From: Turneriella sp.
GTDB taxonomy: Bacteria > Spirochaetota > Leptospiria > Turneriellales > Turneriellaceae
DNA length: 64,000 nucleotides
NCBI GenBank assembly: GCA_965279515.1
Contig: CBDIID010000003.1
Span: forward strand, 1,568,001-1,632,000
Direction of reading: 5' to 3'
How positions within the stretch are numbered: position 1 is the first letter of the stretch; every line of letters begins with the position of its first letter. A program made the translations under genes and the position numbers. The notes under the pieces were generated by a model, which saw only the letters and a program-made list of their open reading frames with translations, searched no databases and was not told the origin of the DNA. Of this stretch, positions 21,455-46,669 are shown in pieces.

Positions 21455-22879
21455 CATTCCATTCAATTGTCACAGGTTTCCTTTGCCTTTCCGGGATCGC
21501 AAACGATTCTGGACGAGATTAATTTTTCAATCGCTTCGGGCATTGTCGCCCTCGCCGGCCCCAACGGCGCAGGCAAGACAACGCTCATGCGCCTCATGCT
21601 GCGGTTGCTTCACCCGCAGCAAGGCCATGTCATCTGGCATGGTTTTGATGAATGCGGTTGGTTGCCGCAGAACCTCACCGCGGCAACGCGCAGCAGCGGC
21701 GAAGAGAAGATGCGTTGTCTTGCGGGCTTGTTGCGTGACGGCAACAGCGTCGTTTTTCTCGACGAACCCGAAACGCATCTCGATCACAAAAACCGTGAGT
21801 GGTTACGCAAGTCACTCGCCCGGCACCGGGGTCTCGTCGTGATCGCCTCGCATGACCCTACGCTGCTTGATGATGCCAGCGTAATACTGCATACCGAGAT
21901 GCGGCAGGTCGTCGTCTACCGGATGCCTTACGCGGCCTACCAGGCTGAGATCGAAAACAAAAAAGCCAACCAGATCGCGAACGTTAACCACGCCGAACAC
22001 GAACTCAAAAAGGCCGAACGGGCGCGCCGCGCCGATTTCGAGCGGCAGTTGAAACGCAGCCGCAACGCCGCGGCGCGTGCACCGCTCGCGGGCATACCCC
22101 GCATCGCGCGCGGCATCATGAAGCGCAACGCCGAGCAGACTCTCGGTAAAATTATCCGCAAGAATAAAAAAAAGGGCGAGGCGGATATCGCGGCGCTCGA
22201 AAACCTGCGCGCCAAAAAAGGTTCACGCGCCGAATTCACTTTCACGGCGATGCATCCGACTGGGGGGCCGGCGCCGTATCTTGAAGTGCACGACCTGCAA
22301 CTGTACCGGGCCGATGGTACAGTGCTGTGGCAGAGACCGGTTTCGTTTTCAGTGAAAGCCGGTGAGCCACTGCAAATTGCCGGAGCCAATGGCAGCGGTA
22401 AGAGCATGCTGCTGACAACTCTGCGCGGCGAGGGAGAATTCCAAAGCACGGGAAATATTGTTTTGGGGCCGGGGCAAATCCGCCTCATGGATTCTGCGCA
22501 CACCGCTATTGCCGCCGACGCACAGGTTTTAGAGCTCACCAGGAATGCAGGCATCAGCGATGACCCCGGTGAAGCCCGGCGCCTTCTGGGCGCGTACGGC
22601 TTTCCCGGTGATGCGGTGTTTCGCCCGTTTCACAGCCTCAGCGCAGGGGAAAAAATGCGGCTGCGGCTCTTCTGGATCAGCCATGCGCCCCGCCCCGTCA
22701 CCGGCATCTTCTCTGACGAAGCCGAGACCGGTCTCGACACAGAGGCGCGCCGCCTCTATGCCGATTTTCTGAATGCGTTTCCGGGGCTTGTCGTTGTCGT
22801 GAGCCACGATGTAAACTTCGTTCGATCGCTGCAGATACGAAACCGGGTTGTGCTTGACATGAGCCCTGTTATGGAGTAA
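21452..22879 (+). CDS. ABC-F family ATPase (two NBDs, no TM), first NBD shortened
   Basis: GPNGAGKT / LDEPETHLD / SHD; helical interdomain linker; GANGSGKS / LSAGEK / SDEAETGLD / SHD. Confidence 0.82.
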   Translation: MHSIQLSQVSFAFPGSQTILDEINFSIASGIVALAGPNGAGKTTLMRLMLRLLHPQQGHVIWHGFDECGWLPQNLTAATRSSGEEKMRCLAGLLRDGNSVVFLDEPETHLDHKNREWLRKSLARHRGLVVIASHDPTLLDDASVILHTEMRQVVVYRMPYAAYQAEIENKKANQIANVNHAEHELKKAERARRADFERQLKRSRNAAARAPLAGIPRIARGIMKRNAEQTLGKIIRKNKKKGEADIAALENLRAKKGSRAEFTFTAMHPTGGPAPYLEVHDLQLYRADGTVLWQRPVSFSVKAGEPLQIAGANGSGKSMLLTTLRGEGEFQSTGNIVLGPGQIRLMDSAHTAIAADAQVLELTRNAGISDDPGEARRLLGAYGFPGDAVFRPFHSLSAGEKMRLRLFWISHAPRPVTGIFSDEAETGLDTEARRLYADFLNAFPGLVVVVSHDVNFVRSLQIRNRVVLDMSPVME

Positions 22880-29900: not shown

Positions 29901-30051
29901 CATTGACAATCACCTGGACATTGGTGATGTCGGGCACCGCATCGACCGGTAAATTTAAAGCCACGAGCACAGCTGCGGTGAAGATCGTGAGCGCCGACAA
30001 AACGACTGTAAGCCGGTGAGCAAGTATGAAATCGATTAATTTACTGAACAT
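26905..30051 (-). CDS. CusA/CzcA heavy-metal efflux RND permease
   Basis: LPVDAVPDITNVQV, ANLMSLGALDFGLIVDG, AAVGFIALSGVAILNG, RLRPVLMTASVASLGFLPM. Confidence 0.96.
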   Translation of the reverse strand: MFSKLIDFILAHRLTVVLSALTIFTAAVLVALNLPVDAVPDITNVQVIVNAKTGGLDPQQVEKSVTYFVETEMAGLPHVKEVRSLSRFGLSQTVIIFADGTDIYWARQQVAEKIIQSAVNLPMGVSLGMAPISTGLGEVLMYTVLPKPGSALAKKTEREQLVYLRTIQHFVIRPYLKSNISGAAEIDSLGGYERQVHIEVSPEKLEQYGITFNQIRQSLRTVGENYGGGYIENRQQQLIVRTNGGLSLSQLNEVPLKMSWDGSKIRLKQVAEICEYHSQRIGAATYRGNETVLGTVLMLSGQNSRAVAQSAEAALKNVPLPEDVETRVLYSRSFLVNATVKTVVKNLAEGAGIVVVILLLFLGNLRAAIFVALAIPISMAFALIGMKVFGISANLMSLGALDFGLIVDGSIVMLENLLSKMEANPPRNLAERLSAVRAATLEIMRPMVTGMIIIMAVYFPILTLEGVEGKLYYPMAITVLFALAGALLVGVVLMPVLGVYVAAKREVHKTAVFQKIYAVYEPLLNFPLRHIRKFVLPLVVIFLLCGYLFRKLGSDFMPALNEGDMTLNLLHDARMSLSESLAREKKAEQIIAAYPEVETVFGRIGTSEAATDPMGVNLTDLFVILKKDQATWRKNTKGKTISQDELFGLIQNDLRPVLAKTENLKESELEQTQPIAMRFNEMLEGSRADVSLRIYGKELETLFELQERAVEILKSIPGARDVTLDSLTALRRSSVLEARMKNDRITFYGVSMAEVNESFQMAMVGRSVGNYYEEDWRFPIVVKLNDASRANTALIKKIPIALPAGGTIPLADLVDFSVRDTVTAIARSGLNRYAGVAIYLGNRDTLSFVQEAKAKIEQELKLNTGLPPGYRLQWQGQFKNLERARLRLAIIVPVILLGIFYLIWRTFRSVKQTLLIFMTIPFAWTGGVVALYIAGIPFSVSAAVGFIALSGVAILNGLVKVSYLNQLVAAGHTVKQAVHTGALGRLRPVLMTASVASLGFLPMVLNSGIGAEVQKPLAVVVLGGLVTATLMTLFLLPAFYQWLQSERE

Positions 30052-30109
30052 AACCCTCCTGTAACATAAACTCCAGGGATATTACTCCCAAACCCAATGG
30101 GCTGAATGT

Positions 30110-30511
30110 TCAGGCTACAGGAGGTGCTCGCGGCGATGCAGGAACAAAGAATAAGGATAACGGGTCGTCGTCATGGAAATCGCGCAAGGCATATGCAGCG
30201 ACGATGATTTCGGGACCGGCAGTGATCGGTGTGACTACTGCAATGGAAACGGGTAAAGAGATAATGAGTATGGGCGCGGAATTTTTGCGGATGCCATTTT
30301 CGAATGTATGCTCAAACAGGGATTCTTCACCGCCATGCGCTTCATCGTGTGCATGCGGCAATTCTGCATGGCAGCGTGCGTTAATTTCATTTGTGCAGAC
30401 AGTCTCGTGGCTACCGTCGTGGTCGACGTGGACGGCAGAAACCGTAGACGCCGTCAGCAGCGTCAGGTAGAGCAAGTTGATGATGGCGAAGATGCGCATC
30501 CGCTGCCGCAT
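30110..30511 (-). CDS. His/Cys-rich leader protein with signal peptide and C-terminal RAPP arrest motif (DUF2946/CruR/CutF/CzcI-like)
   Basis: Start at 30511 or 30499. Signal peptide ..TVSA; HVDHDGSHETVC..CHAELPHAHDEAH; ends SPRAPPVA*, 58 nt upstream of the RND gene. Confidence 0.7.
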   Translation of the reverse strand: MRQRMRIFAIINLLYLTLLTASTVSAVHVDHDGSHETVCTNEINARCHAELPHAHDEAHGGEESLFEHTFENGIRKNSAPILIISLPVSIAVVTPITAGPEIIVAAYALRDFHDDDPLSLFFVPASPRAPPVA

Positions 30512-30584
30512 CGCCCGGCAAGCGAGTTGGGCCGTCAAAAATAATACGGTTTCACTGGCTTGTTGAAAAAACCGTATGGGGCAC

Positions 30585-41868: not shown

Positions 41869-43227
41869 TCAAACGAGCTCAACCTCCTGCAGATACTCCG
41901 GAACGCTTGCATTCCATTTTAATTCCTGATGAATTCTTTCCGCAAGTGCCCGCGCCGATTCCGGTTCGCCATGCGTGACAAAAGTCATGCGCGGTGGTTT
42001 TTTGCAGAGCGAAAGCCAGGCAAGAATCTCAGGCGCATCGGCATGAGCGGACAGGCTATGGATCATTTCGACCCGCGCCCGTATCGGCACTTCTTCGCCG
42101 TGGATGCGAAGGGTTTTAGCGCCCTGCAGCAGAGCTGCCCCGCGCGTGCCGGCTGCCTGAAAACCGGTAAAAAGAATGATATTATTTTCATGCGGCCCGA
42201 ATGCCGCCAGGTGATGGAGAATGCGCCCACCCGTCGCCATACCATTCGCCGAGATAATCACCATGGGCCCTGCCGTCTGGTTGAGACGTTTCGATTCCTC
42301 CGGAGTCCTGATATAGATGGCTGCCTCACAGAGCTCCGCGCACGCCGCGGCGCCAAGACGGTGATCACCCTGGTGATCGCGGAATATTTCCGTGGCGTTG
42401 ATCGACATCGGGCTGTTCAGGAAAACAGGAATTTCAGGAATACGGTTTTCACGCCGCAGTTTGGCGAAATAATAAAGCAGCAACTGCGTGCGTCCCACCG
42501 AGAATGCCGGCACAAGTACAACAGCTTTTTTGTTCGCAGCCTCGGTGATGATATCGGCTAAGGTATCTTCGGCGGGCTTGTGATCGTGTATGCGGTTTCC
42601 GTAGGTTGACTCGACGATAAGATAATCCGTTTCTGCAACCGCATCCGGCGGAAAAAACAAGGGATCATTGGGTCGCCCCAAATCACCTGTAAACGTCACA
42701 GTCTTATTTCCGGCCGTCAGGCGCACGAGGGCCGAGCCCAGAATATGTCCCGAATTTTCAAACCGGCAGGAGATATTCCCGGGCAGCGTGAAATCCTCAC
42801 GATACTTTTTCGCGGTAAATTTCCCGAGCGAAATCAGCGCGTCATCCTGCGTATAGAGCGGTAATGCCGGGTGGTGTTTCGAAAATCCGCGCTTGTTGGC
42901 AAAGCGCGCTTCTTCTTCCTGCAGCCAGCCGCTGTCGGGTAAAAGGATTTCGCATTGCGCCCGGGTGCCCGGTGTGCAATAGATTTTTCCCTTAAAACCA
43001 TTCTTCACAAGCAACGGCAGATATCCCGAATGGTCGATGTGCGCATGCGTGAGCACGACGGCGGCAATCGAGGCGGGCCTCACCGGCAGCGGATCCCAGT
43101 TTCTGAGCCGTAACTCCTTGAGTCCCTGGTAGAGACCGCAGTCGACGAGAATGTGCGTCTCGCCCTCTGTCACCAGGTATTTTGAACCGGTTACCGTACC
43201 GGTTCCCCCTAAGAATTGAATTTTCAA
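41869..43227 (-). CDS. Metallo-beta-lactamase beta-CASP ribonuclease (YSH1-like)
   Basis: FLGGTGTVTGS, THAHIDHSG, GHILGS, ESTYG, SAHAD, HGE. TTG start overlaps the copper oxidase TGA. Confidence 0.93.
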   Translation of the reverse strand: MKIQFLGGTGTVTGSKYLVTEGETHILVDCGLYQGLKELRLRNWDPLPVRPASIAAVVLTHAHIDHSGYLPLLVKNGFKGKIYCTPGTRAQCEILLPDSGWLQEEEARFANKRGFSKHHPALPLYTQDDALISLGKFTAKKYREDFTLPGNISCRFENSGHILGSALVRLTAGNKTVTFTGDLGRPNDPLFFPPDAVAETDYLIVESTYGNRIHDHKPAEDTLADIITEAANKKAVVLVPAFSVGRTQLLLYYFAKLRRENRIPEIPVFLNSPMSINATEIFRDHQGDHRLGAAACAELCEAAIYIRTPEESKRLNQTAGPMVIISANGMATGGRILHHLAAFGPHENNIILFTGFQAAGTRGAALLQGAKTLRIHGEEVPIRARVEMIHSLSAHADAPEILAWLSLCKKPPRMTFVTHGEPESARALAERIHQELKWNASVPEYLQEVELV

Positions 43228-44531
43228 TCGTTCACCTTCGCTGCCACCGTACCCTTCGGATACTTGTACCAGCCAGGATCGGCATAACCCTTGAGTTTGT
43301 CACGCACCTTGAGCACGGTAAACATTCCCCCCATCTCAATCGGCCCGAACGGCCCCTGCCCCGTCATCATCGGCAGCGTATTTTTCGGACGGCTCATCTC
43401 CATCTCAGCCATTTCACCCATGCCTTCATTGCCCATCTCCATGTAATCCGGCAATTGTTTGCGCACTTTCTTTTCATGCGCTTTGTCGCGTTTAACCCCG
43501 ATCATGTTAGGAATATCATGCGCCATCGCATTCATCGTGTGGTGCGACTTATGGCAGTGGAATGCCCAGTCGCCGGGGTTATCGGCGATGAATTCGATGT
43601 CGCGGGTCGCGCCCACAGGCACATTCACCGTAATCTCAGGCACCCATGCGGTTTCCTGGATTGGCCCGCCATCGGTACCCGTAACGTGAAAATAATGCCC
43701 ATGCAGATGTATCGGATGCGAATCCATGCTGAGATTGGCGAGCCGAATGCGCACGCGGTCGCCGGTTTTTACGACGAGATGGTCGGTGCCCGGAAAAGCA
43801 CGATGGTTAAACGTGAAGATGTTGAAATCCGTCATCACCAGTGGATTCGGCCGTGACGTACCGGGCTCAATCCGCCATTCCTGCAGCATGATCGCAAAGT
43901 CGCGGTCGATCTTGCGCTGCGCTTTTTTCGGATGGATAATAAAGAACCCCATCATGCCGAGTGCCATCTGCACCATCTCGTCAGAATGCGGATGGTACAT
44001 CAGCGTCGCCGGCTTTTGCCGTATCTGAAACTCGTACTTAAACGTCTCACCCGGCATAATGTGTTTCTGGTTCAGTCCCGCGACGCCGTCCATGCCCGCC
44101 GGCAACAGCACGCCGTGCCAATGGATGGAAGTTTTTTCCGGTAGTTTGTTCGTGACATAGATGCGCACTTTGTCGCCCTCCGTCACTTCGAGCGTCGGTC
44201 CCGGCGCTGAGCCGTTATAACCCCAGCAGTCGACGAGCATGCCGGGCGCAAACTCACGCTTCACAGGTTCGGCGGTCAGGCGAAAGGTTTTGAAGCCATT
44301 CTCGATCGTGTAGCCGAGCGACGGCACATTCGGCGTGATGACGCGGTGGGATGTACTCAGGCCTGAAACGATTTCATCGTCTGCACGGCCTTTTTCCTTT
44401 GGTCGCTCTGCTTTTTTAGCGCCATGATTTTCATGATCCTGCGCGCCCAGCATGCGGCCCGCCGCAAGGGTGGCCAACAGCGCCGCCGCCGATTTTTTTA
44501 GAAAATTTGTACGTGATATTGTGTTTTCCAT
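43224..44531 (-). CDS. Tat-exported two-domain multicopper oxidase
   Basis: Tat-like SRTNFLK; HWHG, MYHPH, HPIHLHGH, HCHKSHH; Met-rich C-terminus. Confidence 0.93.
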   Translation of the reverse strand: MENTISRTNFLKKSAAALLATLAAGRMLGAQDHENHGAKKAERPKEKGRADDEIVSGLSTSHRVITPNVPSLGYTIENGFKTFRLTAEPVKREFAPGMLVDCWGYNGSAPGPTLEVTEGDKVRIYVTNKLPEKTSIHWHGVLLPAGMDGVAGLNQKHIMPGETFKYEFQIRQKPATLMYHPHSDEMVQMALGMMGFFIIHPKKAQRKIDRDFAIMLQEWRIEPGTSRPNPLVMTDFNIFTFNHRAFPGTDHLVVKTGDRVRIRLANLSMDSHPIHLHGHYFHVTGTDGGPIQETAWVPEITVNVPVGATRDIEFIADNPGDWAFHCHKSHHTMNAMAHDIPNMIGVKRDKAHEKKVRKQLPDYMEMGNEGMGEMAEMEMSRPKNTLPMMTGQGPFGPIEMGGMFTVLKVRDKLKGYADPGWYKYPKGTVAAKVND

Positions 44532-44537
44532 ATTTCC

Positions 44538-45905
44538 TCACTGTAGGGCGGCGAGATTCATGCCGGTCGCCTTGCCGAGCTCGGCGCGCGCGGTAAAATA
44601 GTCGCGGTGTGCGTCGAGATATTCTTTTTCGGCCCTGAGTTCATTCTGCCGCGCGGTCAGCAGGTGAAAAATACCGGCGAGCATCGCATTATATTGTACC
44701 TGCATGAGCTGCGTGGCGCGCGCGCGCTGCGGCAGAACCTGTTTGTGGTAGAAGGCGACGCGTTGCCGCGCGGCGATCATCTTGTCGCGTGCGACGCGCA
44801 CGTCGGCGCGTACCTGAACCGCCAGGTTTTCGAGTTCACGCAGCCGCATGCGGTAGAGGTTGACGATCCTTTCAATGCGCGCGTCGCCCTGATCGAACAA
44901 CGGCACTTCGTACTGGATATGCGGCCCGATTTTGTAGGCATCTTCTTCGAAAGCCGCGTCGACGCCGAAATCGAGCTGCGGCACCCAACGCACGCCCGTC
45001 ACGGCCTTCAATTGGGCCCGGTAAAAATCGAGGCCCGCCATCAGCGCCTTGATATCAGAACGGTTTTCGAGCGCTTTATTCTCGAGACCGGCAAAAGCGT
45101 TTTCACCGGCGGGAATCGCCGGCACCGTTTCCGGTATTTTCCAGCGCAGGTCAGCGCCCCACAGTCCCATGAGCCGGTTGAGGTTCTCGCGCAACAGGCG
45201 CACATCGATCTCAGCCTGCTGCAGCGCCAGGCGAATCTCTGAGAATGCCGCCTCTTCAGTGGCCAGCTCAAGTTCGCTGATATTTCCCGCGCTGTGCAGG
45301 CGGCGGTGCATGGTGATCGACTCTTCGGCGGTTTCAAAATTCAAGGACTCGATACGAAACTTGTGCAGCCCGGTCTGCAAAGCGACATAGCTTATGCGCG
45401 TGGCCAGCGCGAGGTTCTGTATCGCCTGCGCGGCGCCGTGCTGCGCTTCGAGTGCCTCGGCTTCGGCCATACGCGTGCGCGCCGCCCTCAGGAAAAAATC
45501 GAGCAGATTGAGGTCTATCCCACTTTCAACCGTCGGCGTGCCCGACTGCAGGGAAAAGCGCGGCGAAACAACAATCGTCGGATTTTTCAGCAGCCCCGCC
45601 TGCCAGACGTCAGCCACGGCTGCACCGAGACGGTCAAACTGCGCCTGCAGTTCGGGGTTGTTGAGTAGCGCGATTTTGACCGTATCATCGACGCTGAGTG
45701 GGTGGCTGAGCGTCTGCTGAACGACTTTGCGGATTTCTGCATCGGCCTGGTCATTGGCCCGCCAGCGCACGCCGGTACCGAGACGTTCCTGCGCCAGCGC
45801 ATCGAGCTTTGCCATATCGTCGCGTTTAGGCGCCGAACTGCATGCCCCTGTAAGCAGCAGCGACAGGGCGGCGCTGGCGATAACCACCCGTTCAGTGGTG
45901 CTCAT
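44538..45905 (-). CDS. TolC-family outer-membrane efflux lipoprotein (copper cluster)
   Basis: Lipobox TGAC; ALLNNPELQA, AGLLKNP, VPLFDQG, YNAM. Confidence 0.9.
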   Translation of the reverse strand: MSTTERVVIASAALSLLLTGACSSAPKRDDMAKLDALAQERLGTGVRWRANDQADAEIRKVVQQTLSHPLSVDDTVKIALLNNPELQAQFDRLGAAVADVWQAGLLKNPTIVVSPRFSLQSGTPTVESGIDLNLLDFFLRAARTRMAEAEALEAQHGAAQAIQNLALATRISYVALQTGLHKFRIESLNFETAEESITMHRRLHSAGNISELELATEEAAFSEIRLALQQAEIDVRLLRENLNRLMGLWGADLRWKIPETVPAIPAGENAFAGLENKALENRSDIKALMAGLDFYRAQLKAVTGVRWVPQLDFGVDAAFEEDAYKIGPHIQYEVPLFDQGDARIERIVNLYRMRLRELENLAVQVRADVRVARDKMIAARQRVAFYHKQVLPQRARATQLMQVQYNAMLAGIFHLLTARQNELRAEKEYLDAHRDYFTARAELGKATGMNLAALQ

Positions 45906-46236
45906 GGTTACCGCCGGTTTTTTCCCGCAATTGTAATTTCATGCCGCACTGGGGACATTTGCCCGGTTTGTCGCTCTGCACTTCGCTGTGCATCGGGCAC
46001 ACGTAAGGAAGCTCCGTGGCAGAACCATGGTCGTGTTTATCTGTCACGGCCGTGCTTTGGTTTTTTGTTTCGGCGATCTCCAGTACTTCTGAAGTGTAGT
46101 GTGGTTCTTCAGCCGAAGCCAAAAGAACGGGCGAGCTGTCAGCAGCGGGCAAATGCGCGGCTGAGGCGCACGAAGACAGACCGGGCAGAACCACGGCGGC
46201 CACCGCAACACAGGAAAAAAATTTCAATAATTTCAT
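45892..46236 (-). CDS. Heavy-metal-binding domain lipoprotein
   Basis: Lipobox LSSC; YVCPMHSEV..PGKCPQCGMKL; His-rich segments. GGAGG SD. Confidence 0.88.
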   Translation of the reverse strand: MKLLKFFSCVAVAAVVLPGLSSCASAAHLPAADSSPVLLASAEEPHYTSEVLEIAETKNQSTAVTDKHDHGSATELPYVCPMHSEVQSDKPGKCPQCGMKLQLREKTGGNHEHH

Positions 46237-46285
46237 AGATCCTCCTATAAGTTAAAAAAGCCTGGGGCCTGAACTTAGGGGATTT

Positions 46286-46669
46286 CTAGATGAGAATGCG
46301 GTGGAGGGTAATCGTAATCTGCGGATCGGGAACGCTCTGGGCAGCTCTGGCCAAATCGTGTTTTAAAACTACATGCCCAACAGCATGTGGAACCGCTAAC
46401 AGACATGGCGCCGTGAATACCGATTGTTTCAGGGCGGCGGTAGTTTTCGCCGTACCCATGGGCAAAGCGCTGCGTTCGAGGCAATGGGTGCACGGCAATG
46501 CGGCACTGGGGGTAAAAGTGATTTTTTTCTGAAAACCCGGACAGCAGCTATGGCCAGCCGCCGTGCTAAGAGAAGTCCTCTTACATACGGTATGCGCAGA
46601 GAGCGCACCCTGCAAGCCCGCAATCAAACCAGCGGCAAACACGAAGATTTTGATGCTTTTTTTGGTCAT
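46286..46669 (-). CDS. Cys/His-rich exported leader protein upstream of the copper operon
   Basis: Signal peptide ..ALSA; HTVC, HSCC, CTHC; ends PDPQITITLHRILI*. Confidence 0.6.
   Translation of the reverse strand: MTKKSIKIFVFAAGLIAGLQGALSAHTVCKRTSLSTAAGHSCCPGFQKKITFTPSAALPCTHCLERSALPMGTAKTTAALKQSVFTAPCLLAVPHAVGHVVLKHDLARAAQSVPDPQITITLHRILI

Follow-up and report, generated by a model that had tools for sequence, protein, structure and literature searches.

A His-rich RAPP leader upstream of czcA in Turneriella: a candidate CutF-like, metal-sensing translation switch in a spirochaete

What does a small, His-rich and putatively exported protein ending in SPRAPPVA do directly upstream of the gene for a metal pump? 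The question arises in a stretch of 64,000 nucleotides of Turneriella sp. (hereafter the window), where such a leader precedes czcA on the minus strand. An earlier note, made from the DNA letters alone, had taken it for an arrest peptide whose own codons sequester the czcA Shine-Dalgarno sequence (SD). On balance, and by a narrow preference, we read it as a cis-acting, CutF-like arrest leader, the form that a known metal-sensing switch of translation takes in a spirochaete. Between positions 22000 and 38000 (ORFs inspected by eye, five proteins scanned) no metal-regulator gene was recognised flanking the leader and czcA, which is a weak indication, as a regulator need not be encoded nearby.

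Table 1. Features of the leader-czcA locus and of a second leader in the window
Feature	Position	Strand	Basis or remark
czcA, CusA/CzcA-family RND, 1048 aa	26905..30051	-	TIGR00914, relatives
58-nt gap with the upper part of the stem and two small hairpins	30052..30109	-	no promoter-like or terminator-like site called
SD arm with AGGAGG, 3 nt 5' of the czcA ATG	30055..30065	-	fold
Leader ORF: signal peptide, His/Cys domain, variable spacer, RAPP	30110..30499	-	orthologs, alignment
Anti-SD arm, Pro-Pro-Val-Ala codons	30114..30124	-	fold, pair probability
RAPP codons CGA GCA CCT CCT	30119..30130	-	predicted stall register: P site, first Pro; A site, second Pro
Conserved domain rich in His and Cys (residues 24-66), with C-x7-C but no CxxC	30302..30430	-	alignment; metal binding inferred
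Putative Sec signal peptide, residues 1-21	30437..30499	-	sequence features, helix 2-21
TTGACG; probable -35 box of the leader gene, with an almost leaderless transcript	30533..30538	-	inferred; -10 box poor here
Anti-SD of the second leader, from 2 nt after its stop, pairing with 46253-46239	46272..46283	-	centroid structure
Second leader, 127 aa, signal peptide, CC + CxxC, ends RILI-stop	46286..46669	-	heads copper operon

Translation of the ORF at 30511-30110 (-) gives 133 aa and the C-terminus SPRAPPVA before the stop, as the earlier note had it. The end at 30110 stands, while the start probably moves from 30511 to ATG 30499, which leaves 129 aa; this start is preferred because orthologs align from there and because of the spacing to TTGAC. 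That element (30538) lies 39 nt upstream of ATG 30499 and 27 nt upstream of 30511, and TTGAC-to-ATG distances across this genome peak at 33-37 nt (61, 75, 33, 22 and 22 counts before long ORFs, with the background near 6); this suggests that the genome has many leaderless mRNAs whose -35 element is strong and whose -10 is weak. TTGAC recurs 36-39 nt 5' of the leader start in 9 of 13 loci, and is absent within 120 nt upstream of the downstream-gene start in all 13. A czcA promoter inside the 58-nt gap, which the earlier note had named among the things that would refute the switch, was found neither by consensus scan nor by TTGAC search, and the only consensus match is TTTTCA-17-TATTAT at 30569-30541, upstream of the leader (one found, 0.9 expected). 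An 8-codon ORF with its own GGAG (30067-30041, minus strand) overlaps the czcA SD and start. The leader's N-terminus follows the basic-hydrophobic-small pattern of a signal peptide, and residues 2-21 form a helix at pLDDT about 90 in an AlphaFold model that is otherwise of low confidence (pLDDT 62, pTM 0.30), with no metal site visible in it.

How widely is this leader kept? Nine of the 30 loci taken from the surroundings of czcA relatives (from 41 genomes) have a RAPP leader directly upstream, and a profile search found the full leader in 11 of the 14 genomes of the genus, one of which has two. The profile also gave one weak match in another genus, with the C-terminus RGPLPPP behind a masked stretch, and a scan of 1.84 billion representative proteins returned 12 matches, every one with RAPP within its last 10 residues. 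No NCBIfam family matched the leader. Wherever the neighbour was read, the gene order is leader-czcA or leader-czcC-czcA. RAPP or RPPP leaders also stand 5' of czcC in three more distant genomes, and in one more distant genome an RPPP leader is followed by czcC, a short His-rich gene and czcA. In all three leaderless genomes of the genus (77-86% complete, with a czcA about 52% identical), czcA lacks a GG-rich SD as well. These relatives are L062, L063 and L064, of which the first and last share their upstream neighbour with leader-bearing loci, which suggests that the leader was lost in these two. At a further locus, L010 (G009:C636), a frame change or stop breaks czcA near residue 320-330, either an assembly error or a pseudogene.

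Eleven residues are invariant in all 19 aligned rows: H24, D26, C35, C43, S60, E63, F66, R124, A125, P126 and P127. Residues 21-70 of the window's leader hold 8 His and 2 Cys. The roughly 55 residues between the conserved domain and RAPP are not conserved in sequence; counted from the end of the domain to the first Pro, this spacer measures 55-60 aa in 21 of 21 rows, some of them near-duplicates. That RAPP is invariant though the preceding ~55 residues vary speaks for the proposed switch. It also speaks against a plainer explanation, that the leader is a free periplasmic metal-binding protein resembling CzcI and that RAPP and helix are incidental, which we hold to be very improbable. A signal peptide and a His cluster would suit such a protein, and CzcI itself is described as preceding czcCBA, without a proline motif; RAPP, however, is strongly avoided in bacterial proteomes (PMC12992588), and the helix statistics that follow point the same way.

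How firmly, then, is the SD hidden? As the earlier note had stated, CCTCCTGTA (30124-30116) is the exact reverse complement of TACAGGAGG (30063-30055), and the pairing extends to 11 bp with one G-U pair (CCUCCUGUAGC/GUUACAGGAGG, 30124-30114 with 30065-30055), a helix present in the minimum free energy (MFE) structure. When 30150-30030 is folded, this helix has a mean pair probability of 0.996 and is continued by an imperfect upper stem; the fold reaches -39.5 kcal/mol (z -2.79), and none of 200 shuffles is as stable. Since Pro-Pro (CCN CCN) always partly complements a GG-rich SD, so that recoded nulls still average about 11 kcal/mol, three controls were used. Opening the czcA SD costs 18.9 kcal/mol, a value reached by 3 of the 613 SD-bearing genes of the genome (SD-like starts under a crude ORF rule), which places czcA about fourth, and the drop on removing the upstream RNA, 14.3, is second among the same genes. 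Synonymous recodings of the leader end match the observed opening energy of the ribosome-binding site in 2 of 150 cases when weighted by codon usage and in 6 of 150 when drawn uniformly. When the leader ends of 13 loci are swapped in, the window's own ranks first (18.9 vs a mean of 9.0). The SD-hiding helix of this genome is real and strong.

An 8-bp alternative had been proposed as well, between CTGAACAT (30113-30106) around the leader's stop and ATGTTCAG (30051-30044) at the czcA start. The complementarity is there, but the pairing is negligible (probability 5e-10). As a helix, CUGAACAU/AUGUUCAG costs 14 kcal/mol (-25.6 vs -39.5), and the czcA genes of orthologs begin with codons differing from its czcA-start arm.

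Placing a ribosome on RAPP in the model lowers the opening energy of the czcA SD from 18.9 to 4.6 kcal/mol. The claim that a stalled ribosome unmasks the SD holds in computation here, but under a strict mask it does not hold at every locus: with only the -12..+15 footprint covered, the SD stays closed in 5 of 12 loci (L031, L033, L038, L040 and L041). The partner of the SD shifts likewise. The Pro-Pro codons, which the earlier note had named as that partner, do fill this role in the window, but as a conserved anti-SD they serve in only 9 of 16 loci: the MFE partner includes them in 6 of 13 loci and in 3 of 3 further distant ones, lies 5' of RAPP in 5 of 13, partly outside the ribosome footprint, and 3' of it in 2 of 13. 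In the ensemble, SD pairing to the -12..+15 footprint is at least 0.4 in 10 of 16 loci, compared with 6 of 92 ordinary gene pairs, and CCT, the best anti-SD codon, encodes 13 of the 26 prolines in RAPP, compared with 13.3% of Pro codons genome-wide. At three of 12 loci (L031, L037 and L041) about 70% or more of the synonymous nulls equal the real sequence; the combined synonymous test over the 12 gives p 5e-4, which is overstated, as the loci are kin and the codon usage is that of one genome. What is conserved in the RNA is the position of the SD pairing and not its sequence.

The stem covariation that would be expected between leader end and SD did not appear: the swap test runs at chance, with a mean cognate rank of 7.0 of 13. 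Leader ends that work equally well when swapped would be explained if control were exerted on transcription, as in CruR, where a stalled ribosome would hide a C-rich Rho site and its release would let Rho terminate before czcA, the SD helix being secondary. CruR does rely on a C>G bubble within its coding region (PMC9426467), and over the final 90 nt of the leader C exceeds G by 10-18 in 13 of 13 loci, when the 95th and 99th genome-wide percentiles are 8 and 12. Ser, Pro and Arg codons and an anti-SD are C-rich anyway, however; the gap to the downstream gene, 33-86 nt across loci, is short beside the 162 nt of cruR, and the window's helix is among the strongest in its genome. We judge this explanation unlikely, though the weightiest of the rivals; it is also compatible with control through the SD, which we consider quite probable.

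Does the ribosome in fact stop at RAPP? By analogy with characterised peptides, a stall of the leader at this motif is highly probable. CruR is reported to arrest at RAPP, and from ApdA/ApdP and CruR the predicted register has the first Pro in the P site and the second in the A site (PMC12992588). The leader also has the features of the RAPP arrest peptides (RQH class): a small, putatively exported protein, a RAPP near the C terminus, and conservation before one gene class. Against the switch, most of the RAPP-like proteins of E. coli and B. subtilis tested are reported not to stall (PMC10987492).

The proposed switch would then operate as follows. Leader and czcA would share one mRNA, and as long as no ribosome occupied the 3' end of the leader, the czcA SD would be locked in the computed helix with the last leader codons. 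The leader would be exported while being translated, and a ribosome stalling at RAPP, as characterised RAPP peptides make plausible, would cover the anti-SD, freeing the SD, in line with the computed opening, for translation of czcA. At that moment the fixed spacer would set the whole His/Cys domain just past exit tunnel and translocon, where a periplasmic divalent metal may bind it and alter the duration of the stall; as with CutF, metal would prolong the stall and turn czcA on. What the analysis shows is the helix, the way the model opens it and how the leader is conserved; that metal is the input to the stall we regard as probable, somewhat less so than control through the SD.

The length of the spacer bears on this input. 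Some 55-60 residues are about the capacity of the exit tunnel plus the translocon. Such a length fits sensing on the periplasmic side, as in CutF, more than it does the 45 residues of CruR. An alternative without metal would be a secretion monitor or plain translational coupling, in which stalling or mere termination opens the stem and ties synthesis of the pump, a large membrane protein, to the translocon. SecM links SecA synthesis to translocon availability in this way. In the model a terminating ribosome opens the window's stem like a stalled one (7.2 vs 7.8 kcal/mol), the RAPP peptides ApdA and ApdP are described upstream of secretion-machinery genes (PMC12992588), and a second RAPP leader of this genome, poor in His and Cys, stands before a gene that is not an efflux gene. 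This alternative, on the other hand, gives no role to the invariant H24, D26, C35 and C43 or to the fixed spacer, and the leader family was seen before metal RND genes only; we find it unlikely, a little more so than control by Rho.

That second RAPP leader (G000:C3:1218466-1218828, minus strand) has 120 aa and a hydrophobic N terminus and lies 102 nt before an 855-aa ORF, with a membrane subunit and a SulP-like gene coming next; the 855-aa product presumably resembles the DabA/DUF2309 inorganic-carbon transporters. The MFE structure at this locus does not favour pairing of the SD to RAPP. Elsewhere on this contig (about 2253000-2266000, minus strand) two ORFs ending in RYPIPPP and a few further residues stand before an operon of OEP-MFP-RND type and a near-duplicate RND gene, and may possibly be polyproline leaders.

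Returning to the metal switch, which metal would be sensed, and in which direction? The czcA product scores 1017.4 bits against TIGR00914, above the cut-off of 701.45, and resembles ZneA more than CusA (541 vs 495 bits), with the DFG stretch of ZneA where CusA has AVGA. The ZneA-like pump and the His-rich leader site together favour a divalent metal, so that Zn, Co, Ni or Cd is more likely than Cu to be the metal sensed. As neither czcB nor czcC adjoins the gene, the window's pump must borrow partners or act otherwise. Among the window's czcA and loci L049-L068, most lack an adjoining czcB, and czcC is absent from most copies in the genus.

We lean towards metal turning czcA on, with less assurance than for metal as such, since the pump is an efflux pump. 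With the opposite sign, metal would fold the domain, pull on the chain and end the stall, so that czcA would be made at metal scarcity and the RND pump would not serve detoxification. This is the direction of CruR (PMC9426467), force release is given as a general rule for intrinsic arrest peptides (PMC12992588), and a pump without adjacent czcB and czcC could be taken in the same sense; yet TIGR00914 and the likeness to ZneA point to efflux, for which metal-off control would be counter-productive, and we hold this sign to be improbable.

How does the leader compare with known systems? CutF of Rhodobacter capsulatus is described as a Sec-exported leader with a Cys/His site, a C-terminal proline stall motif, a stem-loop hiding the SD of the next gene and a metal-detoxification target (PMC9973294, bioRxiv 10.1101/2025.02.05.636593), all of which resemble the design proposed here. 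CutF, however, carries the motifs CxxxC and PPP, and its target is a multicopper oxidase, whereas the window's leader has RAPP, is His-rich and belongs to a family with C-x7/8-C; and the stem-loop of CutF is described between the genes, where the window's anti-SD lies in the last codons of the leader. Within the survey of Ozturk 2023 for CutF-like proteins, whose model has the stall melting the SD stem (PMC9973294), ACR_tran (CusA/CzcA) and OEP neighbours and His-only clusters are reported, with scarce Spirochaetota (PMC9973294, bioRxiv 10.1101/2022.11.11.516240). The leader passes the CutF-like filter (under 150 aa, PP in the last 15 residues, a same-strand gene within 1000 nt) with its 129 aa, its RAPPVA-stop end and its 58-nt gap, and by computation a stem-loop hides the SD where the stalled ribosome could reach it.

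CruR (Bp2923 of Bordetella pertussis, DUF2946) shares a RAPP near the C terminus, a fixed distance from the metal site and the first place in a metal operon, but differs by a CxxC 45 residues before RAPP, relief of the stall by copper, Rho-dependent termination and an uptake target (PMC9426467), and by a signal peptide described as dispensable. Membership of DUF2946 (PF11162; CruR, CutF) was rejected: the score is 10.6 bits vs 23.7 (E 0.99, C-terminal stretch only), one of nine members of the leader family matches, at E 1.5, and in place of a CxxC some 45 residues before RAPP there are C35 and C43, eight apart and more than 80 residues before it. The C-terminal RAPP is shared with that family. 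By language-model features, the nearest clusters are DUF6769 (PF20558) and unnamed Bacteroidota leaders (0.96-0.97), and the Fujiwara table has DUF6769 proteins that bear His clusters and RAPP in front of CusA/CzcA (PMC12992588). None of nine aligned members, however, matches DUF6769 in Pfam at E up to 10, leaving the Atlas feature score of 0.96 only, and the resemblance is a likeness of design and not evidence of kinship. In SecM and uDF_RQH_Enterobacterales, too, a stalled ribosome disrupts a stem hiding a downstream SD, but these are described as monitoring secretion and not metal, and for ApcA, ApdA and ApdP no SD hairpin was predicted (PMC10987492, PMC7897499).

The earlier note had known of no such arrangement for a spirochaete HME-RND gene, a claim of novelty that does not survive. 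In the source data of Fujiwara 2025 (EMBO J), 50 RAPP against 7 AAPP uORFs stand before CusA/CzcA, a 28-fold excess (adjusted p 4.27e-25; PMC12992588); one row, TURPA_RS07045 of Turneriella parva (130 aa), carries all 11 invariant residues by eye and precedes CusA/CzcA, and Ozturk 2023 has both CusA/CzcA and Spirochaetota cases. The architecture is not new, being in print as a table row even for a spirochaete. The main text of PMC12992588, as searched, contains neither 'efflux' nor 'stem-loop', and no experiment on the RAPP-CusA/CzcA group. Neither a test of such a leader before czcA nor a description of the helix came up in a search of mainly open-access literature.

A second leader in the window raises a related question: it heads a copper operon (43224-46236: HMBD lipoprotein, outer-membrane efflux protein, multicopper oxidase) and ends with no proline motif but in RILI-stop. 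In Leptospira, an exported ORF containing Cys occupies the same position upstream of czcC-czcA as the RAPP leader (45 of the 86 genomes searched), and all 30 fetched leaders of this family end in RLLI-stop (12) or RILI-stop (18). No homology to the RAPP family was detected (HHalign probability 0.4%), and searching 69 candidates for homologs of the window's second leader gave no match at E 0.1. Its three counterparts in the genus (L105-L107) end in QILI-stop, RLLI-stop and RAPP...RLLI-stop; among these four copper-operon leaders, one with both motifs, anti-SD and SD change together.

In the Leptospira leaders the partner of the SD clusters 0-8 nt after the stop, and footprint pairing of at least 0.4 is found in 18 of 30 Leptospira-type and 3 of 4 copper-operon leaders, compared with 6 of 92 controls. 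Immediately 3' of the stop, a 14-bp helix is 99.3% paired across 11 close relatives (10 distinct) with one double change, and is not significant alone, as 55 of 500 shuffles reach it. The swap test among Leptospira-type loci is weak (mean rank 9.9 of 25, where 13 is expected), and the region of the second leader gives z +0.42, a helix weak by itself. Farther away, FRI-stop or FLI-stop leaders with CCUCC-like bases after the stop appear in 2 of 80 distant copper loci; under a crude automatic classing these 80 comprise 46 unclassified, 15 without a TolC-size ORF, 10 of PP type, 2 of LI type, 5 too short and 2 skipped, and several rows classed as 'none' end in HAPP. Exported Cys/His leaders ending in HAPP precede copper operons at L112, L114, L118, L136 and L151 (Verrucomicrobia, Planctomycetes).

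A tentative reading, in which our confidence falls somewhat short of our doubt, is that Leptospirae place two interchangeable stall modules before metal genes, elongation arrest at RAPP and termination arrest at R/Q-[IL]-L-I-stop, and that the position of the anti-SD follows the predicted stall site: within the RAPP codons or next to them in the first, and at the first nucleotides after the stop in the second. The LI-stop genomes are close kin, which counts against this reading, and the post-stop anti-SD is also explained by ordinary unwinding coupled to termination, with no arrest needed. The LI-stop ending, being hydrophobic, might instead serve as a protease tag. Termination-arrest peptides with other motifs have been described (NSP-stop, NAP-stop and DGMK-stop; PMC10987492). 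A description of LI-stop arrest was not found in the mainly open-access literature searched; published searches filter on proline motifs, which would let such leaders escape. R[IL]LI-stop is a candidate for an undescribed termination-arrest motif and, as such, more novel than the RAPP leader.

What would these leaders mean for the biology of metal control? The design in the window is unusually clean, for the two prolines held in the stalled ribosome are encoded by the very bases that hide the SD, so that stall and switch should be separable by synonymous and compensatory changes. The RAPP-before-CzcA group is already tabulated in print, and the locus offers a good first test case. LI-stop leaders, if they arrest at termination, would form a new arrest class controlling metal genes. 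The RAPP leader, for its part, would extend nascent-chain metal sensing, as in CruR and CutF, to the spirochaetes and to an efflux pump that is probably for divalent metals.
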